Of a DNA stretch of 64,000 nucleotides, positions 1 through 56,929 are shown piece after piece; position 1 is the stretch's first letter; each line of letters starts with the position of its first letter. The position numbers and the translations under genes are program-made. Source of the stretch: Naegleria gruberi (taxonomy: Eukaryota); NCBI GenBank assembly GCA_000004985.1, contig GG738861.1. The stretch is one strand, 5' to 3'. The notes below the pieces were generated by a model. The model ran no database searches, had not been told where the DNA came from, and saw nothing but the letters and a program-made list of their open reading frames with translations.

Positions 1-1938
1 TCATTTTAGAAAAGTGTGATGGCGAATCTCCAAATGCTTGTACCAGATGTAAGAAGAAGGGTATTCCATGTGGTATGTAGTTTGTGTGAAAATCATTTTA
101 AACTTATCATGTTAGTTTATTTACCACCTCAAAAGAGAGGTCCAAAGTCAAAGAAGAGAAAGGCAAATGATGGAGATGAGGAAGAATACACTGTAGAACA
201 ATTAACATGTGCTGCTGGATTGTGTGCCAACCAAAATCAACAAATCCAACAAATTCAACAACAACAAGCTCAACAACAATTTAATGCTCCTGTATATTTC
301 AATCAATCACCACCTCAACAAGCTCAACAAACTCAACAACAACAAATTGTACAACACCAAACTCAACAACCTCAAAAAATAGTTAGCTCTGTTGACTTGG
401 ACTCTTACATTACTGAAGCTATTTTCTCTTCCAATAAGAATACTAATCCATCTACTGCTCTTACCAATTTCTATTCACAACCGCAACAACCTAGTCCACT
501 TACAGGTCTCCAATTTGCAGTCAATGTTCATACAAGAACACTCGTCGATCAATTCTTAGAGTAAGTAGTATTTTCATGCATTCATGCATTAAACATTTCT
601 AGTTCTGTGACATGCCACTCCCTTGTAGATAGAAACATGTTGGATAATGCCCTCAATAAGGCTGTTATTTTTTCATCTGAACCAACTGGTTACCAACTCT
701 TAACAAATATTGTATGTGCAATGGGCGCTCAAAGATTAGAGGACAGAAAGAACTGTATTGAATTTTTCAATAGAGCAAGAAATCAAGCTAGTTACTTGTT
801 TGATAAGCCATCTAGGGAAGCTTCATGTGCTTTGAGTTTGATGGGTATTTATGCTTGTTCAGAAGGTGAAAGAATCAAAGGTCACATGTACAACAGAATT
901 GCTTTGGACATGTCTACGGACTTGTGTTCTTACCAAATTGAAACCGACAAGTATTACCAAACTCTTTCTGCTCTCTCATTGGCAACAACGTTCTCTAAAT
1001 GGTTGTTCGAGTTGAACATTCTCAAAGTTGAAGAAAATTCATTTGATTGCCTTCTTAAGAATGCCAATAATCCAAACCATCCTCAAATTCCATCCATTCG
1101 TGAACTTGTTAAAAATGTTAAAAACTATATTGGTTCTTCGAAGTGTATGCGCGAGATTGAAGAAATAGAAACCAAAATTGCCGATATGAGTCTTGTTAAG
1201 GGAAGTGAAGAAGTCTCTTTCACAGCCATTTTGGTTTACTACTTGTTGGTCTCAAGACTTGCCATGTTGACAAATAACCAAATCGAATATATCAAGATTT
1301 TGAGAAAATTAGAAACTATTGAAAAGTATATTGAATCAGAAAAGTTTAACAGAGATGATCTCCAAAAGAATGTGCACAGATTCTGTCTCTATTCTCTTAG
1401 ATCGGATATTTTGGTGAGATGTGGACTAGATAAGATGGGTTTACACTGTGCTACCAAGGCAACTGGTTTAGCAGCTAAGCCAACTTTCTGGAAGTCAGCA
1501 CCAGCTATTATTCTCTTCTTCCCTATCCTTATCAACATTAACCTTAGTGTTAATGATAGTAGTATGTCTATTGAAAATTACAAATCACTCAAGGTTATCA
1601 GCTCTAAATTTGTAGTTTTAAAATATACCCTATTTGATATGATTAATATCATGAATAAGAGATCAGAGTTTGCTGATCTCTTAGAGAGTGAAAGACAACA
1701 CGTTCCACAAGGTATTACAAATTCAAGTGGATATCTTCCATTCACTAATGATGTTCCTCAATGTGAATCATGTCCTCCACAGGATTGGAATACTAATATC
1801 TTTGACCAAAACAATAACAACGAGTCATGTTTCCCTAACTCTGATCTTACAGAATTATTGCAACAACTAGGAACTGTGAGCGATCATGAATCCTATCAGA
1901 ACAAGTTAGAATCGATATGGCAAACAATTGGTCAATAA
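1..1938 (+). CDS. Zn(II)2Cys6 (Gal4-type) binuclear-cluster transcription factor, 5' end cut by window edge. Exons 3..72, 116..560, 603..1938
   Basis: Frame-3 translation of 3..72 gives ILEKCDGESPNACTRCKKKGIPC (C-x7-C-x2-C-x6-C, the distal half of a Zn2Cys6 cluster). GTATGT donor at 73 and AG at 114-115 restore the frame into ORF 16..564 (basic PPQKRGPKSKKRK linker, then a Q-rich tract). GTAAGT at 561 and AG at 601-602 join in phase to ORF 607..1938. Domain identity is from memory, not a search. Confidence 0.55.
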
Positions 1939-2140: not shown

Positions 2141-4277
2141 CTATTTAAAATTCTTCCAAAATCTGTCTCCATAAGAGAAGAGTAATTCTGAATGAATATC
2201 AATATCTTTCAATGCATAAATCCCAATCCTGTAATCATGTGAATTGGTGTCATACACAATTTTGGGGATGCAATTATTGGTTTTTGAAGTTCTAACCTTT
2301 CCTTGTGCATCATTGAGGAATCTTGATTCATTTCCTTTTCTAAACGCGTCCACACTCATATTTTCATTCAGTTCGAACAAATAACTCGATTCATACATGT
2401 CATAGATTACTGATCTTCTATTCTCTTCCAATATGGATACAATCTCACCAACATACTCCACTATCAGCTCGTCCTTTTTAATAGGCTCCAGAGAGAATAA
2501 ACCTAAACCATGCAGCTGACTGAATCCTACTGCACACCGTTTCATAAAGTGTTTAGAAAAACTATTCTGGCAACTATTCTTACAGTCACAATATCCAAAA
2601 CACGATCTCTGATACTTTTTACATGTACACTTAGCCCCTGCACAGTTGTGATTTTTGAATCTATTCTTTTCTGTAAAGCAATTACACAACTCTGTACAAA
2701 AGGTTCCATTCTTTACACAATTACATTCTGAAACGTTCATTATTGCACACTGACACGGGTTATAGAGCATTGGTTTGTGAAGATTGGGAAAGATAACCTT
2801 CTCAGGGTTGATTTTCTTAACAATTTGAGTTTCTAACATATCCAACTCTTCGGGCGTTAAGAATGATTTTGCCACACCTCTCATAATGGCCAACTCTTCT
2901 ACCTTGTTCTTGGGTGGAGATTTCCTTCTTGCCATTCTAATTTTGAAATTAAAGAACCAATCACAGATGAATTTCTTAATTTCTCTGCATGGACGAATGT
3001 GATGTTCTGCCATCTGACAAAAGACATCTCTATTGGAACACTTTGAATTGTTCATATTTTCCAAAAATCGTTCTCCATAGATAAAAACAGTATTAAGGGC
3101 AATTTCCTTATCATATTTCGTCCAATGGTCGTATGAATCTGATATTGATTCATCCTCAACACAATGCAGATAGCACTCTGATGAGCATGGTTTAAGAGAG
3201 TATTTTTTGTTGACAAGCAATGAGTTTTGAGTTTTGAATAGCTTTTCTAAAATAGAGCCAATAGATAATTCATTATTATATTCAGGGGTGGCTCTAGCAT
3301 CTTCTGGATCTCTAATGCATGTATCATACTCCACTCTGTGAATAGCACAATCAAATTTCATGCACTTGTAACAAAATAGCTTGGCTGTAATACTCCATAT
3401 CGATTCTAGTGATCCATTCCTATAAAATTCCCACAATAAATAATAATAATAATATGATGGATAAACTCTCAATAATTCACGTGTTAACCTACTTTGATTG
3501 AGATTTTTGCTCATTTTCCCTCTTGAAAATTGAATAGCTCGATAATTGTTCCTGGAACAGTTCCATAATTTTCAGTCTAAACTTTTTCCTATCATATTGT
3601 AAGTGTTCCTCTGCCATGACAAATAGTTCTTGATTCTCATTTTCATACTCCCTCATAAAATCCTCAGCCAGTAATTTTAACACTTCATCATTTTCACCAT
3701 ATTTTTCACTAATTCTTTCTACCATTGTTCGGTAAATAGTTTCGGCCCACAAATCCAAATAATATTTCATAAACTTGGAATATCCACTCTTTTTTGCAGA
3801 ATTATTTCCATTTTCTATAAAACTCAAATCATCAAAGTATTTCGAATATGATTGATAATCCACACAAAAATCATCATCCTTATATGGAATAAAGTCAACT
3901 GAAGCCTGTTCCTTTGCCATCTTATTCTTACACAAATATTCATAGTAGGTGTATTGTAATTGAAACATGCTATCAGGATACTCAGTTACTGATTTGTTTC
4001 TTCCTCTAGTTTTTGTTTTTAAAGTGATGGAAACTTGTTCCATTCCCTCTTTCTGTTCTTTCAATTGTTGAGAGTGCATATTTAGACTCTTTTGGAAAAT
4101 GGCCAAGTCTTTCATTCTGTGTTCCGTTTTGAATACATCGATATCCTCCTCTACTTGTTCCGAATCAATTTTGTGATGAGTTCTCTCTCGTTTACCTGAT
4201 GACGATGATATCTGGTTGTGGTGATGATTTTCCTGATGATGCATGCCGTCATAGTGATGGTGTGGAAGTAGATGCAT
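2141..4277 (-). CDS. EZH/E(z)-like CXC + SET domain protein (PRC2 catalytic-subunit-like). Exons 4277..3493 and 3419..2141, about 687 aa
   Basis: C-terminal half has a Cys-rich CXC run (CQCAIMNVSECNCVKNGTFCTELCNCF...CAGAKCTCKKYQRSCFGYCDCKNSC) followed by a SET core (GLGLFSLEPIKKDELIVEYVGEI...GNESRFLN...HDYRIGIYALKDIDIHSELLFSYGDRFW), colinear with animal EZH2 as I recall it. Overlapping ORFs 3489..4277 and 2141..3514 join via GTAGGT donor at 3492 and TATAG acceptor at 3421-3420 (73-nt intron, phase 2). His-rich N-terminus. Start codon choice is uncertain. Confidence 0.55.
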
Positions 4278-4366
4278 TTTTTTGAATGATATTTAAAATG
4301 TTATTTATTACTACATAATTTTGTAACAATAGCATACTGATTGTTAACTATAAAGTATCTATTGAA

Positions 4367-6921
4367 TTATTGAGAATTTCCAATTAATTGATCAATGATA
4401 AAGGCATATCTGAAAGCAATTTCCTTATAACGACTGTATCTTCCTGAGCTACCTCCGTGACCTTGATCCATATTTGTCTTCATTAAAATCAAGTTGGTTT
4501 TTTGATTATTCTTCTTTGTAGCAAAGAAATGACGCATACTAGCAACATATTTAGCACCTTCCCAGTAATTAACTCTGGTATCATTGAAAGCGTGGTCAAT
4601 TAAAATGGCTGGATATTGTTTATCTACATTCTCATCTCTATCAATATTGTCGTATGGTGAATAAGAGTACATATAGTCAAAATAGGTCTTATCTTTTGGA
4701 TTACCCCACTCATCAAACTCAGTAACTGTGAGTGGAAGTGTCTCGTCCAACATGGTATTGATAACATCAACGAAAGGTACTTGCAAAATGGCAGCCTTAA
4801 ATAAATCAGGTCTTTCGTTTACAACAGCACCAATTAAAAGTCCACCTAATTATTATTATTTAAAAATTATCTCAATAAGAAATTATGATAAAAACTAACC
4901 TGCAGAACCTCCATAAATACACATACGATCCTTGTTAGTGTAGCCACTTTCAATCAAATGGGAAGCACTATCGATAAAATCAAAGAAAGTATTCTTCTTA
5001 TTCAATAATTTACCATCCTTATACCTAATATGGAAATAATAAAATAAATTAAAATAAAAAATAAAATAAAAATAATTACCATTTTCTTCCATTTTCAGCA
5101 CCTCCTCTAATAGCTGGAATAGCATAAATCATTCCTCTGTCGAGGAGACTGATAACAGAATAGGAGAAGTAAGCGTCCATACAACTATTTCCAATAGAGT
5201 TGAAATTGTGATAACATTAATAAAAATATGATTACAAATGACATACCTTCCATAAGAACCATATGCATAGAGTAAGAGAGGATTGGTTCCATCCAAAACG
5301 ATTGATTCATCTCCTGCCTTCTTCTTGTAGACTAAGCTGATTGGGATTTCAGTTTTACCATCTCTTGACTTGGCCACGATCTTTTCTTGTTTGTATTGAT
5401 TTTTATCAAATCCACCAAGAACTTCATCTTGCTTCAAAACAATGAACTCATTATTTTCCATGTCATAGTCATAAACTGTTGGCGGAGTTAAGAAGGAGGA
5501 ATATTCAATTCTGACCAATGAGGTTTCATATTCTCTGTTGTGGCTGACACTCAAATCATAACTTGGCTCTGGGAATACAACTTCCTATTTGTTGAATGAA
5601 TTCGAATGAGAACGCGAATCGAAAAGAAACATACCTTTGGTGGAGACTGTTTAGAAGGATCTAAAATAACCAACTTTGGAACACCATCTGCTCTACCAAA
5701 CAAGGCAATCTTGCTGGAGAATGAAATGAGATATTCACAATAGAATTTTTCATTGTATGGAACGAAATCCTCAGCACTGTCAAAGTCTGGATTTGAAATA
5801 GGAGTTCTGACAACTTTGAAATTTACATTTTCACCTTCATTGTGAATAATATAAAAGTAATCACCTTGATGTGAGACTGAAAATTCAACACCCTCTCTTC
5901 TAGGTCTATTACCAAATAATTTGAAAGTTCCAGTCTTTAAATCCTCACTCTTCAAATAGTGATACTCTGATGTAATATTTGAAGAAGATTCAATGAATAA
6001 ATATTGACCTGAAAGACTCTTTCTCACAGACACAAAATACTTTTCATCTTCATCAGTGAAGAGAAGTTCACAATTATCAACGAGAATTTCCTCACATTGT
6101 GATCTCTCATCTACAAGAGTATCAATATCAATATTAGCTCTATAAACCCTGTATGGTCTGTGTGTATGATCATAAGTTGTAAAGACAATGGTTTTAGAAT
6201 CAGAGCTGAATTCCAAAGAACGCCCACTTTTTTGAGATCTATCAATCTTATTTTTCAATAATTTTCCACATCTCAAATCCTTAATATACAAGTCATAATA
6301 TTCAGATCCATCGACATCAATAGAGTACGCTAAAAATTGTTCACATGGAGAAACCTTGAAAATGCCAATTGTCAAAAATGGGACTTTCAATTCCTCAACA
6401 AGTTGATTTTGATCTAACAAAATTTCTTCCTCTCCTCCAGCTGCTGGTTTTCTACAATAAATTGAGTATTGTTTTCCATCTTCAGTTTTGGAATAGTACA
6501 TGTAATTCTTATAACGATATGGAACACTTTCATCAGTTTGCTTAATTCTATTCTTAATTTCATTAAACAATACATCTTGAAGATTTTCAGTGTGATTCAT
6601 CTTTTGAGTGCAAAATTCATTCTCTGATTCCAAAAACTCTTTCACTTTCGGATTTGTTTTTTCTCTCAACCAAAAGTATGGATCATGCAATTCCAAACCA
6701 TGAATTGAAGTAGTACGATCAATTCTCTCAGCAATAACACTAGGATTCATCTTTTCTTTTTTTATGGTGGTGAAGTGATACAATTTGTTTGATCCCGTAT
6801 TAATTATCGTGTTGTTGTTCTTGTTGCTGGTCAATGATGATCTCCCTAACAAGGCAATGCAAAATTTTTTTCTTGTTATTTTAAGAATGGATTTGCGTGT
6901 TGTTGGGCAAATTGCTTTCAT
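4367..6921 (-). CDS. Oligopeptidase B-like prolyl-oligopeptidase-family serine peptidase (S9A). Exons 6921..5635, 5584..5247, 5184..5080, 5024..4900, 4845..4367
   Basis: N-terminal beta-propeller region (HDPYFWLREK...), then catalytic domain with LLDRGMIYAIPAIRGGAENGRKW, YKDGKLLNKKNTF, nucleophile motif MCIYGGSAGGLLIG and C-terminal WGNP...HAFNDTRVNYWEGAKYVA...DQGHGG. Four introns (50, 62, 55, 54 nt) all start GTATGT, GTAATT or GTTAGT and end AG, and phase arithmetic closes exactly (2334 nt = 778 codons). A more likely start is Met at 6750 (MNPSVIAER...). The 57 codons upstream could be a targeting extension. Confidence 0.75.
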
Positions 6922-11851: not shown

Positions 11852-14800
11852 TTAAAATAATTCAGAAGAAGAACCTTCAGTAATGTTGGTATGACACAGT
11901 GGACAATGTCTGTACTTGTAAATTTCATGCTCTACGGCTCTATGTTTACAGGTAGAACAAGTCCAGAAATCTTGATCTCCAATATTTCTACCACTCACAA
12001 TACAAGTATAGAATGGAGCATTGCAGGAGGCACATGACTGCTCGTAATCGAATGTTTCATTACTGCAGGTTGGACATGGTTTTGTTTCCAAATCTGTTGA
12101 GTTAACAGGGCTATCTCTGAAAATATCAATGGCCAATTGTTCATACTTTTCCTTATCGTGTTCTGATAAAGCATCCATTGATTCTAACTTGATGAAAGCT
12201 TTGGAGCAAACCTTGAATTCTCTAGCATAGAAACCTGCTAAAGCAAGGAGCGAGTACAATTCCTTTGGAACAAAGTATTCTTCATACGATGAAACCAGCC
12301 TCATTGTAGTATTCAAACAATCACTAAGTTTGAATTCGGTAAGTTGTTTTTGGGCAAGCAAGAAAAAGTGATAAGCCTCAGCTCCTCTCCATGGATTTTC
12401 AAAATTGGTAGAAGCATCATGAGAGAGCATGGTTTGAAGTGCCTTGTTTGGATTCATTCTTGTTGCTTGATCATTTAACAATCTGGCTCTATATCTATCA
12501 ATCTCCAAAGCTGAAAGAACATAGAATTTCTTTGCTCTCAGTGGATGTAATTTCATCTTTCCCTCTTCCTCACCAAGTTTGGCAAGAATCTTGGCTGACT
12601 CTGTATTTCTGTTAGCTTTTTGGTATAATTCGATTGCTGCTGTCATATCTCCTCTAGAAACTAGATGGTTGGCATACTTGTACAGAATATCTTCAATTTC
12701 ACTCATATTGTGCTTTTCAGCCAATGTAACAGCTTCATCCCATTGATTCAATTCAACACAAACGTCGATAGCTTGCTTGATCTTACCACCCTTGACGAGA
12801 GCTTGAATAGCTTGAGTACTCAAACCAACAGAAGCCAACTTTTCACCGATTGGATGTAAAAGTGGATTATTCTCTGGTAGGTCATCAACCATTCTTTCCA
12901 ATGACTCAAAGTCTCCAATCCTATAATAAGCTTCAATTAATTTTTCAAAGTTTCTTGCCTTAACATAAAATTGAATTGAACGTTCCCATTGTTGTCTCTC
13001 AGAATAGAAATCTCCCAAGTGATTAAACACATCAATCAACATTTCATCACTTCCATTCATTTCTCTGACAAGACTGAGAACTTTCTTCCAGTCCCCGTAT
13101 CTCTTTCTCAAATCGATGGCAAGATCCTTTCTATCGATGGAACGATAGATCTTTTCTGCTTCATCCAATCTGTGGAAGTATGCTTCTATTTCTGCCTTTT
13201 GCTTAGCTTCGTTATCCAATTGTTTGATTTGTTTTACAAAATATACACCATGGTAATCACCACATTGGATGTAAGCCTTGTAAGCCATATCCAATTCTAA
13301 TTCAGACATTGCTGCTTCTGCCAATAATCTCCACAATCTTGGGTGAGGATTATCTTTAACAAATTCGTTAGCATCCCTCAAGCTGACACTTCTGATAATT
13401 TCCTTTGTATCTCTCAACGAACGACTTTCATAAGTGATGGCACAGTCAGAATCTGGATTATCTGGATTTGCCATAATATCATCCATAAACACTGACTTAA
13501 TTTTAAGATTGTTGAAAGCACACATGTAAGCTGAGGTAACTACAGGTTCCTCAGGAGTTAAATCTCTGAATGTGTACATCTTGGTCTTTTCCATTATAGC
13601 AAATAATGATGGATTATCGTCAGCCCATCTCATATCCCAAACATCTTTCTTTTCCAAATCTGTTTTATCAGCCATGATATTACCCTTCTTTTTCTTCTTT
13701 TCGCTTTGTACCATTTGTTGGGCTGCAACAACAGAAGATAAACTGTAAACAGTGAAAGTACTGTTAATATCAATGAGTGACAATTTGGTGCAATCACAAT
13801 TGATAGCAATTTGGAGAGGTCTACACATGACAGAACATGATCCAAGATATGCCAAAGTTGGTAGAAGTGAATAAATATTCACAGTACCAGATTCTCTTGC
13901 AATAATAAGGAATTTCTCATTTGAAAATACAGCACAAATAGCGTCCTCGGTAGTAGTAAGTTCCAATTTTGTTTCATCTTCAATCTTTTTAAATTTGTTT
14001 TGATCAATGTGCATTAAATATTGTTCAGATTCTCCCTTAATATTCAATATGTTGCCTTGAGTATTTTGCTTTGCTCTATAATTCCAAACATAAACATTAC
14101 AATCAGAGCAAACAATTACGTGATACTTGGTCATGGTGACGAATTTTGGTTCAACAGATTGCGACTTTGTTTCCACTGGACTACCTATCGAGTTACAAAT
14201 AATTATGACGAATGCTTCCTTTGGTGTTTCTGTTTTGGTGAGCAAAACACAATTTTCTCCACAAGCACTCAAAGCTAATAATTTCTTAATGTACTTTACA
14301 TATTTTTGTCTAGTCTTGTGATTATAAAATACTACACATTGCTCTGGTCTTTCTAATTTGGTAAAGGCATATACTACAGTCTTTGAGAAATAGCCCCATC
14401 TATAACTTGGTCTGACATTGGCAAAGAAAATATTTGCATCTACACCTAGAGCCAATCTCAAACCAGATCCTTCCCAAGTTACACTCTTTACACCATTGCC
14501 AGGTACTTTGAGAGTCTTTAAATGTTTACCATAAGGGGAATAAAATTGAATGATACCCATTGGTTTTCCATCCAAGTCTTGTTGACCAGCAAGAGCTAAA
14601 ACAGTACCAGATGGATTCCATTTTGGTTCATTGATGAGCATACCAGCATCGATTAGGACTGGATCATCATCCAAGTCACCTCTCATCAATTGGCACCTTC
14701 CATTTCTATAACAAATTGCTAGTGTTGGAGCATTAAGATCTGGATAACCTTCTCTTCCATCATACCAGTCAACACCAGCCAAAATATTATTTGATTGAGG

Positions 14801-15520
14801 ATTCATATCTACACAAGTAATATTGATTGAATGCTAGAAGAGTAAGAAAATCTAGTGTAATTAAAATACTTACCAATTTGATTCCTGAATTGGCATCAAA
14901 TAACCAAACTTCTCCATTTCCAGTTCCGAAGAGCAAATATCTTGCATCGGGAGACCATTCAACATTAACCAATTGAGTTTTCAAACTCTTTCCCCAATTT
15001 CTATTTCCGTCCACTCCACCAACAATTACAGCACCTTTAAAAATTGTAAATATTTCAAAATCATTCGACAATTTCACTTACCATCATCGTAGACAATACA
15101 AATCTTTTGACCATCACTAGACCACTTTAAATCCTTCACCACTGATTTTTCTCTATTATTCAACATTTCCTCTTCCCATTCCTTCTTTTGCTTATTATAA
15201 TTCCAAACAATAATGAGACCACTAGCATCGCTAGAAGTTAATTTTTCATTTTCCTCATTCCAACTCACTCTCATTACATTGGATGGAAGCTGATCTTTAC
15301 TTTCCTTTCCGGAGTGGCCAGCAAGAGTTTGATTGAATTCTAAACTTGTTGGTGCTGTTACACCTCTTTGATTAATATCAGCCTTAGTTTCTAACTTTAA
15401 AACTTTTAATAAACCATTCTCACCTCCGCAAGCAATCCAACCATGATAGCCATTCCAAGATATGTGATTGAGCTTGAGCCCATTAGGTATGCTCACCTTC
15501 TTGTTCAAGTATACCCACAT
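11852..15520 (-). CDS. WDR35: WDR35 / IFT121 (IFT-A complex WD40-TPR protein). Exons 15520..15082, 15034..14874, 14833..11852, about 1193 aa
   Basis: N-terminus [44 protein letters not shown] matches human WDR35 ([44 protein letters not shown]) and is colinear after that (ICIVYDDG|[71 protein letters not shown]). C-terminal TPR region ends in a Cys-rich zinc-ribbon-like tail. Introns of 47 nt (GTAAGT...TTAAAG) and 40 nt (GTAAGT...TTCTAG). Phase totals close (3582 nt). Confidence 0.85.
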
Positions 15521-43150: not shown

Positions 43151-46100
43151 ATGATTTTCAATCATGAAAAAGCCAAAATTCTATTAAAATTTCTCCATTT
43201 ACCTCTCACATTCTCTCCAAAGCCTCCAGCTACTCTTTCTCAAACTCTACAATGGACTTTGGAAAGATACTACAATTTACCACTCTATGGAAAGAAGATC
43301 AACATTGCTAACAATACTAATAATACTCTCAATTCAAAGAGTGAACATACAATTTCCGAGCACTCTTCCAAAGCAAATGATGATCATCAATTAAATAATA
43401 ATAATATTATTTATAATGAATTTAATAATTATGAATGGAAAAGTTATGAGGAAATTTATTGTCAGGCTCAAGAATTTCAAATTTATTTGGAGGAGAATTG
43501 TAGTGTGGAGGTTGGTGATTTGGTGTTGATTTGTTGTCCAACGAGTGAAGAGTGGGTGATTGCAGATTTGGCATGTGCAATGGCTGGTCTTGTCTCAATT
43601 CCAGTGGATCCTATGCTTGGTGTTTTGAAAATCAAACAGATTTGTGAGTTGACCAAACCAAAGGCTATTTTGTGTTTGGACTCAACCTTGTTTGATGGTG
43701 TAAAGTTGGATTGCTCTGTAAACATTGTGAAAATTGGACCATTACAGAAGAGAAGTAATTTTGATTCGAAACTGATTGCAAATCTGTCTGAAAAGGAAGA
43801 CGAAACCTATTTATTTACATTGCAACCAACTAGTGGATCAACTGGCAATGTTAAACTCACAAAAAGGACTCGCTCTAATTGGCTTAAAAGAGAAGGAAAT
43901 AGAGAAACCATTCTTCTTATCAATTCCTTATCCAGTCCTTCTTCACGTTCTTGGTTGTGGACTAATCTAATGCAAGGTGGTAAGGTGGCAGAATCTTCAT
44001 TGGAAACTTTAATATCAGACAGTCAAATTGTTCACCCAACCCAGGTTTCTTCCACTCCCATAGTTTGGGATCACATTTCCTCAGTGGTACGAAAGGGAAC
44101 AATCAAACCAACAGCATCCCTGGATGGAACAATATCGTGGATGAATACTCTTTTTGGTCCAAAATGTAGAGCTGTTACAAATACAGGTGCAGGATTGAGT
44201 CAATCAACAAGAGAATTGATGACATCGTTGTTTGGATCTGCTTTTGGAGATGGATATGGTAGTAGTGAAACAGGTGGAATTGCAATTAATGGTAAACTAT
44301 TACCAGGAGTTCAAATTAAATTAGTAGATGTACCAGAAATGGGCTATTACTCAACCGATATTCCATATCCAAGAGGAGAGCTCTATGTGAAAACTAGTAC
44401 CATGTTTGATGGTTATTTAAATGATGAGAAAACCTATCAAGGAAAATATCAAGAATGGTTTCCAACAGGTGACATTATTCAATTATTATCACCTGATGAA
44501 ATTCAAGTTATCGATAGAAAGAGTTTTACAATGAAACTGAAGAATGGAAAATTTGTTTCATCAACTTCAATAGAAAATTCTCTAAAGAGCTCAAAGTTGT
44601 TACAAGTAATTGTAATTGTGGAACAATATTCTGGAAAAGTAATTTCAGTTGTAGTGCCTAATTGGGACTTGTTCAAAGTCTTTTTGAAAGAAAAAGGAGT
44701 GGAAGGCTTGAGCAAAAGTGAAATGTGCTCCTCTGAAAAATGTAGAAACGAAGTATTGAAAGAGTTGAAAAGAATTCAATTATCAGAAGGATGTAATCCA
44801 GATGAAATTCTAAGAGGTGTTTTAATTAAGGAGAATTTATTTAGTGTAGAGGATGGTTCTCTCAATCCTTCTTTAAAGATTTCCAAGTTAGAGCTTGTTT
44901 CTAAATTTTCAAAGGAATTTCAGGAACTGAACAGTAATAATGTTGCAGAGAATGAAAATGATTCAATAGAGAAATATTTGAAAATTTTGAAAGATATTTT
45001 TGGCCACGAAGTGTCAATGGGCAACCATTGGACAGAACTGGGTACAAATAGTATTACTGTTACGATGATTGCCAACAAGTTAAATTCAACATTTGATAGC
45101 CAAATATCATCAAGCCAAATTTACAGATCTATCACAGTGGAAAATCTAGCATTTGAATTATTTAACAATACAAATGCAACTCATCATATAGAAGAGAGAA
45201 CACTATTATTACAGGATATTCAATCTGTTCTTCCACAAACAGATGGAACCAATAGAGCAGTTCCACCGGCTCCACCTCAAACAGTCTTTATGACTGGTTC
45301 GAGTGGCTTTCTTGGAGCCTATATACTGGATAATTTGACAAAACTTGGTGTTAAGGTTATATGTCTAATTCGCTCCAGTCCTGAAAAGTTTTATTCAAGA
45401 ATGGAATATTATGGAATTTCACCCAACAAGAATCTAATTGAACTTGTTAAAGGAGACATTTCAAAACCTCTTTTTGGATTATCAGTCATTGAATTTAATA
45501 ATATAAGAGAAAAGACCCACTCTATTATTCATAGCGCATCTAATGTAAATTGGCTTCTTCCTTACTCTGCTCTTCGTCATACGAATACACTTCCTGTGAA
45601 AACAATAATGCTTCTATCAAATTCAAATATTCCAATCCATTACATTTCTAGCATTGCTTGTGCAGAGCCTGGATCGTGTGAAACTCTTATACCAGACATT
45701 CCACATGACCCTGCATCTATGGGTTACGGTACTTCAAAATGGGCCTCTGAATACCTTCTATCACGCTATTCTAAACAAGACCAAGGTTCGGTTGTTATTT
45801 ACAGACCTGGTCATCTAGTTCCAACATCTGTCGATCAGGTGGTTGGACTGAATGAGAATGACTTTGTTTCTGTACTGATTTCTGGGTGTATTAAAGCAAA
45901 AGCATTTCCACCATATAGTGGAGCTGTGGAATGGACAAGTGTTGGAACAACTGCTAGTTTAATAGTACAATCTGTTATGAAACAAAAAGGTCCACTACCA
46001 TCAGAATTTAATATTTTCTCTCCATTGTCTACCAATTATGAAGATTTATATCAAGCTATATTATTGGAGGGATATGAGCTTAAAAAGTGTAATAAGGATG

Positions 46101-46318
46101 AATGGAACAATATTCTAAAACAGAAAGATAATCCTCTTAACAGTGTTTCTTTTCTACTCGTTGATGGATTGAAAGGAACTAATTTATCAAAACGATTTAC
46201 TTCATCTAATATCAAATATCTAGAAAGAGACCTTTCATGGCCAGCAATTTCAATCCAGAATATTAGAAATTGGATTAGTCACTTGCAAAGAATCAAGCTT
46301 ATTCCTCCACCAAAATGA
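43151..46318 (+). CDS. NRPS-like adenylation-thiolation-thioester reductase (A-T-R) enzyme, carboxylic-acid or aminoadipate reductase-like, single exon, 1055 aa
   Basis: Adenylation core motifs in order: LACAMAGLVSIPVDP, LQPTSGSTGNVK (A3), YGSSETG (A5), GELYVKTSTMFDGYL (A6), WFPTGD (A7), NPSLKISKLEL (A10 Lys). Carrier-like segment WTELGTNSITVTMIANKL. C-terminal Rossmann reductase with VFMTGSSGFLGAYIL, ICLIRS and catalytic YGTSKWASE (Y-x3-K). Confidence 0.8.
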   Translation: MIFNHEKAKILLKFLHLPLTFSPKPPATLSQTLQWTLERYYNLPLYGKKINIANNTNNTLNSKSEHTISEHSSKANDDHQLNNNNIIYNEFNNYEWKSYEEIYCQAQEFQIYLEENCSVEVGDLVLICCPTSEEWVIADLACAMAGLVSIPVDPMLGVLKIKQICELTKPKAILCLDSTLFDGVKLDCSVNIVKIGPLQKRSNFDSKLIANLSEKEDETYLFTLQPTSGSTGNVKLTKRTRSNWLKREGNRETILLINSLSSPSSRSWLWTNLMQGGKVAESSLETLISDSQIVHPTQVSSTPIVWDHISSVVRKGTIKPTASLDGTISWMNTLFGPKCRAVTNTGAGLSQSTRELMTSLFGSAFGDGYGSSETGGIAINGKLLPGVQIKLVDVPEMGYYSTDIPYPRGELYVKTSTMFDGYLNDEKTYQGKYQEWFPTGDIIQLLSPDEIQVIDRKSFTMKLKNGKFVSSTSIENSLKSSKLLQVIVIVEQYSGKVISVVVPNWDLFKVFLKEKGVEGLSKSEMCSSEKCRNEVLKELKRIQLSEGCNPDEILRGVLIKENLFSVEDGSLNPSLKISKLELVSKFSKEFQELNSNNVAENENDSIEKYLKILKDIFGHEVSMGNHWTELGTNSITVTMIANKLNSTFDSQISSSQIYRSITVENLAFELFNNTNATHHIEERTLLLQDIQSVLPQTDGTNRAVPPAPPQTVFMTGSSGFLGAYILDNLTKLGVKVICLIRSSPEKFYSRMEYYGISPNKNLIELVKGDISKPLFGLSVIEFNNIREKTHSIIHSASNVNWLLPYSALRHTNTLPVKTIMLLSNSNIPIHYISSIACAEPGSCETLIPDIPHDPASMGYGTSKWASEYLLSRYSKQDQGSVVIYRPGHLVPTSVDQVVGLNENDFVSVLISGCIKAKAFPPYSGAVEWTSVGTTASLIVQSVMKQKGPLPSEFNIFSPLSTNYEDLYQAILLEGYELKKCNKDEWNNILKQKDNPLNSVSFLLVDGLKGTNLSKRFTSSNIKYLERDLSWPAISIQNIRNWISHLQRIKLIPPPK

Positions 46319-47158: not shown

Positions 47159-48748
47159 ATGAAGAGAAAAATTGAAAAAAATCAAGCCATGAAGAGAAAA
47201 CAACAAAAGAAAGCCAAGGCTGTTCCAAAAAGAACAGCAGAAGAAGAAAAAGCCTATCAAGAATATTTGCAAAATTTAAATCTGATGGACCACTTGAATG
47301 CAGAGTATAGTAGTGAGGAAGGTGTTCAAAAGGCTAAAAAGACCTTTGGAGAAAACAAGCCATTCCCATACTTGCATTTGAAGAACTTTTTCAAGGATTT
47401 GGAATTTGTAAAGGATGTCAAGCAAGAAACTCTTGCACTTAAATATTGGGAAAAGAACAATGATTTGTATCACTTTTTACAAACTAAAGATCTTCAAAAG
47501 AATGCCATTGTTGAAGAGAATGAACATTTACGTAAATTGAGAGATGTTTTATATAGTCCAAGTTTTAGAGGATGGTTGGAAGAAGTTTGCAGTCTTAAGG
47601 AACGTGGAATTAAATTGAATCCATCCATTGATATGTTTGTTTCATGTTATCGTGATACACATCACTTGTTGTGTCATGATGACGAATTGGAAAAACGTAG
47701 AATTGCTTATATTATTTATCTAGTTCCAGAAGATTGGTCCGAAGCTGATGGTGGACATCTTGATTTGTATAATTGTGATCCAAAACAAATGGATCAACCA
47801 GTTAGTATTGGTGGTTCAGTTCTTCCATCATTTAACAGTATTTCCTTCTTTGAAGTTTCTACAATTTCCTATCACAGAGTTCGTGAAGTTTTACGTGCTA
47901 TTGATATGGAGGAAGATCGTATTGCTATTACTGGTTGGCTGTATAGTGATACTCTTGTTGAAAGACCTGATTATACTATTGAAGATATTGCTCCACTTAC
48001 ATATGAAGAAGTTTCAACTGTTGAAACACCTGCTGCTCATTTGGATGTTGCATATTGGTTAGGTGAATCATATGTTAAGGAAGATATCAGAAAGGCTGTT
48101 AATGAACAATTTTGTAATGAATCATCTATTGAATTGAGATCATTCTTGAGCGCTCAAAAATTCGATACTTTATACGAAGAATTCAAATCATTGAAGGAAG
48201 ACCAATTCGATTTTACAATTCCAGCCAATAGAAGACACTTTTTGAGATTGAATTCTGAAAAATTGGAAAAGAGCTCTGAATTGAGCAAGTTTTATGAATT
48301 TGCCAAATCTCAAGTTTTCGTTGATTATTTGAAGGAAATTACCTCACTTCCAATTAAGAAGATTAATCTTCAAGGAAGAAGATTCAGACCTGGTGATTAT
48401 GCTCTTGTTCAAAATACTCCAGTTGACGAAGTTCGTTTGGATGTCTTGTTTAGATTGTGTCCAAAGGATTGGGACTTTGATTTTGGTGCAGGTGTAACGT
48501 ATATGGATGAAGAAGAAGAACTCTTGTCCATCCTTCCAGAACCTAATACCATCTCGATTGTTTTGAGAGATACTGGTGTTCAAACATTTGTCAAGTATGT
48601 GACACATCATGCTCCAGGTGATGTTTATGACTTTTTACTCACTTGTGAAACTGAAATTCCAGAAGGAAGTGAAGGTGACTGGGATGATGATGAAGAGGGT
48701 GAAGAAGGCGAAGAAGAAGGTGCTGAAGAAGCAGAAGAAGAGGAATAA
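47159..48748 (+). CDS. OGFOD1: OGFOD1/Tpa1/Ofd1-type 2-oxoglutarate-Fe(II) prolyl hydroxylase, single exon, 529 aa
   Basis: Double-stranded beta-helix iron-site region CYRDTHHLLCHDDELEKRRIAYIIYL (H-x-D...RR.A.I.YL), as in OGFOD1/Tpa1. Second degenerate DSBH domain downstream. Acidic Glu/Asp tail. Basic KR-rich N-terminus. Confidence 0.7.
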   Translation: MKRKIEKNQAMKRKQQKKAKAVPKRTAEEEKAYQEYLQNLNLMDHLNAEYSSEEGVQKAKKTFGENKPFPYLHLKNFFKDLEFVKDVKQETLALKYWEKNNDLYHFLQTKDLQKNAIVEENEHLRKLRDVLYSPSFRGWLEEVCSLKERGIKLNPSIDMFVSCYRDTHHLLCHDDELEKRRIAYIIYLVPEDWSEADGGHLDLYNCDPKQMDQPVSIGGSVLPSFNSISFFEVSTISYHRVREVLRAIDMEEDRIAITGWLYSDTLVERPDYTIEDIAPLTYEEVSTVETPAAHLDVAYWLGESYVKEDIRKAVNEQFCNESSIELRSFLSAQKFDTLYEEFKSLKEDQFDFTIPANRRHFLRLNSEKLEKSSELSKFYEFAKSQVFVDYLKEITSLPIKKINLQGRRFRPGDYALVQNTPVDEVRLDVLFRLCPKDWDFDFGAGVTYMDEEEELLSILPEPNTISIVLRDTGVQTFVKYVTHHAPGDVYDFLLTCETEIPEGSEGDWDDDEEGEEGEEEGAEEAEEEE

Positions 48749-55261: not shown

Positions 55262-56929
55262 ATGCCTCAGCTTGGTAAACGGAAGGCCAAGAAGGAAGAA
55301 ACTGATAGTAGTGGTTCGGATAGTGAAGATCAAGGAGGAGAGGAAATGACTTGTCTGGAAAATCCTCCAATTTCCGAGATTTTGTGGAATTTTTTAATTG
55401 TAAATTATGAGCAGACTGATATGAAGAAACAAGCAACAAATGTTTGCAAGATCATTTTAAAAACGTTAAAATCAGAAAAATTACCAAAACCCGAGGAAAA
55501 TGATGGAAAATATAAGGAAGTATATTCAAAGTACACAAAACTGGATCAGGAGGCTAAACTGAATATTGTTGACATTTTCGGAAGAAGTTTACTGGAGAAA
55601 CAATTTGATCACCTATTCCAAGTGATCACTAAGGAGTATATATTTAAAGATTTTAGTGCCGAGAGTATGTTTGAATTATTAAAGAAGGAAATTGATGATT
55701 CCACATCAATAATATTCAGACCTGATTTTGATGATCTGTACTCTGGTGTAGATCAATCAAAATCTGAAAAGCTTTCAAAACCTTCTAAAAAATCAGGAAA
55801 TAACAATAGAAAGCAAAACAATCAAACTGATGATGAAAGATGCTCCAGAGTTGTTATGGTCACAACTTCTACTCAAATATTGGGGCCTGATCTCGGTTCA
55901 TCTGCATCAGGTTCTTCAAATAAGGGAAATGAACAGACTGCTCTTCGTTTTGAAATCGTTTTCAATGATGGATCAGTTGATAGCTTGCAAAAACTATTGG
56001 CTGCCAAGAACATTTATGGTAAACAATTGCCAAAGATGCCTAAGGATTACATTGCCAGATTGGTTTTTGACAGAAGTCACAGAACCATTGTAGGTTTACA
56101 AAATGGACAAATTGTAGGTGGTATCAGTTTTAGACCATTCTTTCCACAAGGATTTTCTGAAATTGCTTTCTGTGCCATTACAGGTAACGAACAAGTTAAA
56201 GGTTATGGTACAAAACTTATGAACCATTTAAAGGACTATTGTCAAACGATTGGTTGTTATAGATTTTTAACATATGCGGACAACTTTGCCATTGGTTATT
56301 TCAAGAAACAAGGTTTTACAAAAGAAATTTCACTAGACGAAAAGAGATATAAGGGCTACATTAAGGATTACGATGGAGGTACACTCATGGAATGTGTGAT
56401 AAGAACAGACATTAATTATTTGGACGTACCAATTATGATTGTAAAACAAAAGCAAGCACTCCAACTAAAGCTGAAAGAAGTTTCCAACTCTGACAAGGTT
56501 TATCCAGGTATTAAATTATTTAAAAATGGTGGCAAGATAAATGGCCCAGAAGATGTGCCTGGCCTTCAAGAGATTGGTTATCAACAAGAAACCAGATCAA
56601 GAGATCACAAACTTCATGCTGCATTTGTGGAGGTGTTGGAAAAACTAAAACGACATGAACATTCTTGGCCATTCTTAGAGCCAGTTGATCCAGAAGAAGT
56701 TCCAGATTATTACGATGTTATCAAGTTACCAATTGATTTATCGACAATTGAACAACGTTTGAAAAAGGATTACTATCGTACTAAGGATATATTTGTAAGC
56801 GATGTCAGATTAATCTTTGAGAATTGCAGAACTTACAACTCTGAACAAACAGAATATTATTCTGCTGCTAACAAATTAGAGGAATACTTTAAAACAATTA
56901 TGAGCAAGATTTTACAACAGAAAAATTAA
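55262..56929 (+). CDS. GCN5: GCN5/KAT2 histone acetyltransferase with C-terminal bromodomain, single exon, 555 aa
   Basis: HAT core [29 protein letters not shown] (matches GCN5 [27 protein letters not shown]). YFKKQGF. Bromodomain [37 protein letters not shown]...[13 protein letters not shown]. Confidence 0.88.
   Translation: [555 protein letters not shown]

Follow-up and report, generated by a model that had tools for sequence, protein, structure and literature searches.

Does a protein of the E(z)/EZH family that has lost the histidine of its cofactor motif still act as a histone methyltransferase? This question is raised by a gene on the minus strand of a 64,000-nucleotide stretch of Naegleria gruberi DNA (GenBank assembly GCA_000004985.1, contig GG738861.1), which is called the window in the following. 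Judged from its sequence, the encoded protein is a true member of the E(z)/EZH family that departs from the wider SET superfamily in one of its defining motifs. The change is shared by other Heterolobosea. In the interpretation we prefer, the protein would be an active enzyme with a remodelled pocket for S-adenosylmethionine (SAM).

The translation contains HGLGLF (the GxG entry), EYVGE, YLFEL, RFLNDAQGKVRTSKTNNC, YRIGIYA and the C-terminal ELLFSYGDRFWKNFK. The other landmarks named in the initial annotation of this locus, namely a GWG-like entry, RIGIYA and an ELLFSYGDRFW end, were thus recovered. Both phmmer against the PDB and hhalign profile-profile alignment pair the segment RFANHSVNPNC of human EZH2 with RFLNDAQGKVRTSKTNNC. 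In this pairing N688 of EZH2 corresponds to N631 and is kept, H689 is replaced by D632 and S690 by A633, and seven additional residues follow before the conserved N-N-C. The positions of interest are:

2306..2314, minus strand: N631-D632-A633 (N-D-A) replacing EZH2 N688-H689-S690, codons AAT GAT GCA
2285..2305, minus strand: insertion QGKVRTS, residues 634-640 (Q634-S640), located in the pseudoknot loop, after N-D-A and before N-N-C
2171..2173, minus strand: Y678, counterpart of the catalytic Tyr726 of EZH2 in ELLFSY, codon TAT; Tyr in all 177 sequences covering this column

The RFxNH(S/C)xxPN motif is therefore only partly there, with R628, F629 and N631 kept and the Asn-His pair broken. The initial annotation had described the NHS motif as lacking, which is correct for the His and the Ser, both replaced and followed by a longer loop, but not for the Asn. 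In the lineage as a whole, RFxNHSxxPNC has become RFxNDA, 7-8 variable and mostly basic residues, and NNC. In an AlphaFold2 (AF2) model of the CXC-SET part, residues 634-640 show no regular secondary structure, with a predicted local distance difference test score (pLDDT) of ~72.

The same N-D-A together with an insert of 7-8 residues was found in N. lovaniensis (RFVNDAQGPVKAKTAKNNC), N. fowleri (RFVNDADRPVKFKGAKNNC), Willaertia magna (KAL9652876.1, RFINDADGVVKLKKTKNNC) and one metagenomic relative (RYLNDANGKVQSSSLSNNC). N-D-A is invariant in all five heterolobosean sequences, the window protein included. The insert is constant in length (7-8) and variable in sequence, with a mean identity of 0.34 over these five. 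Conservation among the heterolobosean orthologues is highest in the SET domain, with a mean pairwise identity of 0.60-0.64 compared to 0.31-0.56 elsewhere. An exhaustive HMMER search of 1.84 billion representative proteins returned no more than three close relatives (E<1e-120); the match after these has an E value of 4e-27, which marks an isolated heterolobosean clade. Since the change is conserved across Naegleria and Willaertia, we conclude that the loss of the His and the insert are a real lineage trait and not an annotation error. Among the sequences compared, only the heterolobosean ones combine the loss of the His with an insert of 7-8 residues. The deposited N. fowleri model (P0002) diverges after ...RIGIFALEKIK and is devoid of the SELLFSYGD catalytic-Tyr motif of all other orthologues; this is probably an error at the 3' end of the gene model and not a true loss.

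Apart from the His, the catalytic equipment is complete. The SAM-site and lysine-channel motifs G566-L-G568 (GxG) and E-Y584-V-G586 (YxG) are present. With the EZH2 counterparts in brackets, Y584 (Y641), F610 (F667), A620 (A677), R628 (R685), F629 (F686), E673 (E721), F676 (F724) and Y678 (Y726) are kept, and E673-L-L-F676-S-Y678 aligns with E721..F724-D-Y726.

How far the His position tolerates substitution was read from 195 aligned SET domains, comprising all proteins fetched as relatives. The D632 column holds H in 151, D in 15, N in 6, S in 3 and A in 2 of them (D, N, S and A together ~13%), and G566, G568, Y584, F610, N631, E673 and Y678 are effectively invariant. With this share of substitutions, the His is, over the relatives surveyed, the least constrained motif residue of EZH-related SET domains, with Asp as its commonest substitute. 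Residues other than His occur in independent lineages: Lophiotrema reads N-D-V, Pycnora N-N-S, Massariosphaeria N-A-A, Verruconis N-S-I and Paraphysoderma N-D-G, and a EukProt protein without the motif His reads KFANDSSSNPNC. Some of these relatives bear the MCSS zinc motif discussed below, and Asp arises independently in further EZH proteins with this motif, e.g. in P0188 and in the Lophiotrema protein P0178. The segment from the motif Asn to the following Cys, typically 8-9 residues long, measures 15-16 residues in the heterolobosean proteins, which is among the longest in the survey. No characterised E(z) with N-D was found: human EZH2, Chaetomium Ezh2 (RYINHA) and Paramecium Ezl1 all carry NH. 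As a side observation on fungal EZH-like proteins (P0003, P0005, P0019, P0082, P0095, P0178), several from Dothideomycetes and lichen fungi are without the motif His (N-S-I, N-A-A, N-N-S, N-D-V), and those of Baudoinia and Chaetomium keep NH.

The gene itself is not new to the literature. Sharaf et al. 2022 (PMC9018016) listed one N. gruberi E(z) orthologue, jgi|Naegr1|66167 on scaffold_17, with the architecture SET and the SET domain at 555-668. Since these coordinates agree with ours (566-679) after an offset of 11 residues, the window gene is almost certainly this single E(z) orthologue of the genome, Joint Genome Institute (JGI) model 66167. A second in-frame ATG lies at 4244 (M12) and is likely the JGI start codon, because the published SET coordinates equal ours minus 11 residues; the true start is uncertain. 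The same study listed one ESC orthologue (JGI 63593) and two p55-type WD40 proteins (JGI 66932 and 68293) for N. gruberi. A PRC2-type (Polycomb repressive complex 2) gene in a unicellular flagellate, highlighted in the initial annotation as worth checking, had thus already been reported. These authors describe the four SET motifs as "substantially conserved" in every clade; the loss of the His in Naegleria is unmentioned. Our literature search on Naegleria E(z) and PRC2 revealed no further study of the gene beyond this one. Within the 64-kb window none of the partners EED, SUZ12 and RbAp48 is encoded.

Histone methylation has been reported from N. gruberi. Chromatin immunoprecipitation (ChIP) in this species reportedly revealed a single heterochromatin state with trimethylation of histone H3 at lysines 9 and 27 (H3K9me3 and H3K27me3), found on transposons only (10.1101/2025.03.17.643675), and these regions coincide with 5-methylcytosine (PMC12344493). 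N. gruberi H3 carries ARKS at both K9 and K27 (AARKS at K27), the K27 peptide being KSAKQPSTGGLKKPHR.

We consider, with moderate confidence, an active methyltransferase with a remodelled cofactor pocket the most probable interpretation of this protein. It is favoured because the other catalytic and cofactor residues are invariant across five diverged lineages, because SET is the most constrained region of the protein, because this is the sole reported E(z) in a genome showing an H3K27me3 signal, and because D, N and S recur at the His position in relatives. In solved SET structures, the His position of the NH motif contacts the SAM adenine via its backbone, and the side chain provides a structural hydrogen bond in the pseudoknot. 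In the heterolobosean protein the Asp (in relatives also Asn or Ser) may fill this hydrogen bond. The inserted, mostly basic loop adjoins the cofactor site and could, together with the short YGDxFW tail, reshape or cap the pocket. The heterolobosean E(z) would then still be a SAM-dependent histone H3 lysine methyltransferase. Its partners would presumably be the orthologues of ESC/EED and p55 that have been reported from N. gruberi, and we infer that it probably writes the H3K27me3 on transposons and possibly the H3K9me3 as well.

Several observations weigh against this interpretation. The H689A exchange in EZH2 is the standard catalytically dead allele (e.g. PMC6342284), and the activity of Paramecium Ezl1 is sharply reduced by H526A, leaving the enzyme nearly inactive (PMC6586856). 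No Su(z)12 or VEFS protein is listed for N. gruberi (PMC9018016). The H3K27me3 signal is based on antibody ChIP and overlaps fully with H3K9me3, and cross-reaction of the two ARKS epitopes is possible; moreover, H3K27me3 was also detected in species without any EZH (10.1101/2021.11.30.470311). The AF2 model of the CXC-SET part represents the protein in a ligand-free form. To our knowledge, no SET enzyme with N-D at the His site has been shown to be active.

The strongest competitor draws on the same observations. The protein could be a pseudo-enzyme, an E(z) that has lost catalysis and persists as a scaffold or as a subunit binding chromatin, with any H3K27me3 originating from another SET protein or from an antibody artefact. 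Its chief argument is the essential role ascribed to the His of RxxNH in the two mutants mentioned above, and it can further point to a pseudoknot-forming loop enlarged by 7-8 residues and to the occurrence of H3K27me3 without EZH. Methyltransferase-independent roles of PRC2 have also been described (10.1101/2023.07.04.547679). In contrast, the remaining SAM-site and lysine-channel residues and the catalytic Tyr are invariant over the five lineages, in the best conserved region of the protein. SET-type domains that are dead have usually lost just these kinds of residues. In addition, no other E(z) orthologue is on record for the genome (PMC9018016), and the recurrence of D, N, S and A at the His position suggests tolerance. 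On balance we regard a pseudo-enzyme as rather unlikely.

Assignment to the E(z)/EZH family rests on both halves of the protein, in which the following blocks were located:

2168..2509, minus strand: SET domain, residues 566-679 (Pfam PF00856, E 3.4e-16, 60 bits, cut-off 22.4)
2534..2764, minus strand: CXC-like cysteine array, residues 481-557, 15 Cys (phmmer versus EZH2 520-605)
2951..3031, minus strand: SANT2-like block RDVFCQMAEHHIRPCREIKKFICDWFF, residues 392-418, paired by hhalign with NYCVIAQSLIGKTCQQVYEF of the EZH profile
3338..3373, minus strand: MCSS-type zinc motif CYKCMKFDCAIH, residues 278-289, matching C-x2-C-x3-DC-x2-H
3852..3989, minus strand: SAL/SRM-like block YTYYEYLCKNKMAKEQASVDFIPYKDDDF, residues 97-142, gapless versus its EZH2-type counterpart (hhalign)

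In the C-terminal half, the best PDB matches obtained with phmmer are human EZH2 and EZH1 (E 2e-22, residues 481-678, i.e. CXC and SET), with ASH1L at 6e-16, and hhalign of CXC-SET against the EZH-family profile gave a probability of 100 (E 2e-53). The Cys columns of the CXC array are invariant in the heterolobosean and fungal alignments, 14 of them across the three Naegleria. The AF2 model of CXC-SET has a pLDDT of 84-94 in the SET core and is weak in CXC. Searched against the PDB with Foldseek, it found EZH1/EZH2 in PRC2 on top (E 4e-13), and its SET core superimposes on the MLL1 SET domain with a root-mean-square deviation of 2.3 Å. The tail after Y678 is GDRFWKNFK and contains no Cys; a Cys-rich post-SET region is thus absent, as in EZH, and the YGDxFW tail is common to heterolobosean and fungal EZH-like proteins.

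For the N-terminal half, residues 1-469, from which CXC-SET is removed, were compared as a five-sequence heterolobosean alignment with the N-terminal part of a 37-sequence EZH-family alignment. Hhalign returned a probability of 97.9, an E value of 5e-13 and a score of 105.7, compared to a maximum of 20.5 in 100 column-shuffled controls. The alignment is colinear, pairing 34-420 with 39-629, and spans the SAL/SRM-like block, the MCSS motif and the SANT2-like block. Within it, CYKCMKFDCAIH aligns with LFCRRCFKYDCFLH of EZH2, a pairing also given by phmmer, and the pattern C-x2-C-x3-DC-x2-H was found in 58 fetched EZH-family proteins. A full-length AF2 model from an 11-sequence alignment (pLDDT 46.7, predicted TM score 0.28) is too poor to judge SAL-SET packing or an EED-binding helix; a helix at 39-82 near the N-terminus is predicted in this poor model. 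Since homology to EZH extends over the N-terminal half with its SAL/SRM-like, MCSS and SANT2-like parts, we assign the protein to the E(z) family, and the EZH-type CXC-SET architecture proposed in the initial annotation is supported by both the PDB and the profile matches.

It is very improbable that the resemblance to E(z) is superficial and that the protein comes from another SET subfamily (ASH1-, NSD- or SET2-like, with a Cys array of the AWS type). The SET domains of ASH1L, NSD and SET2 match as well (E 1e-16 to 1e-10), and the protein changes clade in the SET-only tree of Sharaf et al. (PMC9018016). What also speaks against E(z) membership is that Pfam, run on the full protein at E<=1, recognises SET alone and none of the CXC (PF18264), MCSS, SANT or EED-binding models. 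However, EZH2 and EZH1 lead both the sequence and the fold matches, the 469 N-terminal residues match the EZH profile colinearly even without CXC-SET, MCSS and SAL/SRM included, and the missing Cys-rich post-SET region is EZH-like. The initial annotation had considered a different SET subfamily with a naturally divergent motif; the motif is indeed naturally divergent, but within the E(z) family.

The reading of the motif depends on a correct gene model. The ORF list (open reading frames) gives, on the minus strand, a 457-codon ORF at 2141-3514 and, upstream of it, a 262-codon ORF at 3489-4277. Joining 4277-3493 to 3419-2141 yields a spliced product of 687 amino acids:

3493..4277, minus strand: coding exon 1, residues 1-261 plus two nucleotides, ATG at 4277 (ORF list and splice reconstruction)
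3420..3492, minus strand: intron, 73 nucleotides, phase 2, GTAGGT...TATAG
2141..3419, minus strand: coding exon 2, residues 262-687, stop codon at 2141-2143 (ORF list and splice reconstruction)

Exon 1 runs colinear with its counterparts in N. lovaniensis and N. fowleri, and colinearity with these orthologues extends across the junction (IFKRENEQKSQSK followed by NGSLESIW, versus IFKREREQKTQQC followed by NGSLEAMW). The sole intron of the N. lovaniensis orthologue, 61 nucleotides long, has the same codon position and phase. Because of this colinearity and the conserved intron position we regard the splice model as right; the 3493/3419 splice suggested in the initial annotation is thereby substantiated. 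Synteny with N. lovaniensis gives no support, as the neighbouring genes differ. Two observations concern the 5' end of the gene. The predicted N-terminus (4215-4277, minus strand) is His-rich (MHLLPHHHYDGMHHQENHHHNQ). The gap between the start codon at 4277 and the stop codon of the upstream neighbour on the same strand is only ~90 bp (4278-4366); the promoter must therefore be extremely short or overlap the 3' end of the neighbour, an oligopeptidase B/prolyl oligopeptidase gene (4367-6921) with several introns of ~50-70 nucleotides.

That a normal NHS motif is masked by an overlooked intron or micro-exon, by a frameshift or by a faulty assembly, the micro-exon having been proposed in the initial annotation, is the least probable explanation and practically negligible: nothing but the unusual sequence itself favours it, whereas the motif region lies inside one continuous 457-codon ORF, none of the GT..AG removals around the motif, all of which were enumerated, creates NH (the in-frame ones delete conserved SET residues), no His codon in the other frames around the motif yields NH, an intron of 21 nucleotides would be far shorter than the 61-73 nucleotides of the E(z) introns here, and four orthologues from independent assemblies carry the same N-D-A and insert.

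Compared with human EZH2/EZH1 and Drosophila E(z), the window protein shows the same order of SAL/SRM-like, MCSS, SANT2-like, CXC and SET parts and likewise ends without a Cys-rich post-SET region. The overall identity is low. Besides the changes H689 to D and S690 to A and the seven-residue insert before N-N-C, W624 of EZH2 is replaced by L, the CXC is shorter (74 versus ~83 residues) and the tail after the catalytic Tyr comprises only 9 residues. Unlike in human and Drosophila PRC2, no SUZ12/VEFS partner is reported for the genome (PMC9018016). The window protein has the MCSS motif, the CXC-SET layout and the YGDxF(W/F) tail in common with the fungal EZH2/KMT6 proteins (Chaetomium thermophilum Ezh2, structures 5KJH/5KKL, and EZH-like proteins of Dothideomycetes). 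In contrast, their non-His variants do not have the 7-8 residue insert of the heteroloboseans, and Chaetomium Ezh2 has the canonical RYINHA. PR/SET (PRDM) domains, whose fold is related to SET, have not conserved the NH motif, and some of them, e.g. PRDM9, are nonetheless active. They form a different subfamily, whereas the window protein keeps all other canonical SET motifs and an EZH-specific N-terminus.

A protist E(z) homologue that invites comparison is Paramecium Ezl1, a ciliate E(z)-like writer of H3K9me3 and H3K27me3 on transposons. Similar to these marks, H3K9me3 and H3K27me3 occur together and restricted to transposons in N. gruberi (10.1101/2025.03.17.643675), and both proteins belong to the full-length clade II of Sharaf et al. 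(PMC9018016). In both, Tyr replaces F665 of EZH2 (Y608 in the window protein, Y502 in Ezl1). Ezl1 differs by its canonical RxxNH and by Gly at the A677 position, which is Ala in the window protein.

The host window is AT-rich (34% GC) and contains ordinary eukaryotic genes with short introns. A gene on the plus strand that starts before the window (1-1938) contributes the C-terminal half of a fungal-type Zn(2)-Cys(6) binuclear cluster (...CDGESPNACTRCKKKGIPC), which Pfam Zn_clus matches at E 6e-6 when a guessed splicing is applied. A Gln-rich linker comes next, then a small second intron and an ORF of 443 amino acids without a Pfam match. The Zn(2)-Cys(6) cluster family is usually regarded as fungal. 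A second chromatin-modifier gene of the window encodes a GCN5-type acetyltransferase with a C-terminal bromodomain (55262-56926, plus strand). Further genes encode IFT121/WDR35 (11852-14806, minus strand), an intraflagellar transport component that fits a flagellate, a Lys2/carboxylic-acid-reductase-type adenylating reductase with AMP-binding, PP-binding and NAD_binding_4 domains in a 1055-amino-acid ORF (43151-46315, plus strand), and an OGFOD1/Ofd1-type 2-oxoglutarate-Fe(II) oxygenase (47159-48745, plus strand).

The presence of E(z) in Naegleria has been published and was taken as an argument for a PRC2 older than the last eukaryotic common ancestor. Apparently unreported in the papers searched is that the sole E(z) of this discoban genome is without the His whose mutation defines "catalytically dead" EZH2, and that this loss is old, being shared by Naegleria and Willaertia, and coupled to a loop insertion. 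The finding is narrow in scope; within the E(z) family it breaks the "invariant NH" rule in a way that can be tested. If the protein is inactive, the case for a functional H3K27 methylation system in Discoba is built on a pseudo-enzyme, and some other enzyme must account for the reported H3K27me3 signal. If it is active, the RxxNH rule has exceptions among E(z) enzymes, and care is needed when SET proteins are called "inactive" from their motifs. A fuller scenario, which we consider clearly unlikely as a whole, would be an active heterolobosean E(z) in which Asp and the lineage-specific loop build the SAM pocket in place of the "essential" His and which, with ESC and p55 and without Su(z)12, forms a minimal PRC2 depositing H3K9me3 and H3K27me3 on transposons. 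If true, this complex would represent for Discoba what Ezl1 is in ciliates and would open a view of an ancestral role of PRC2 in transposon silencing.

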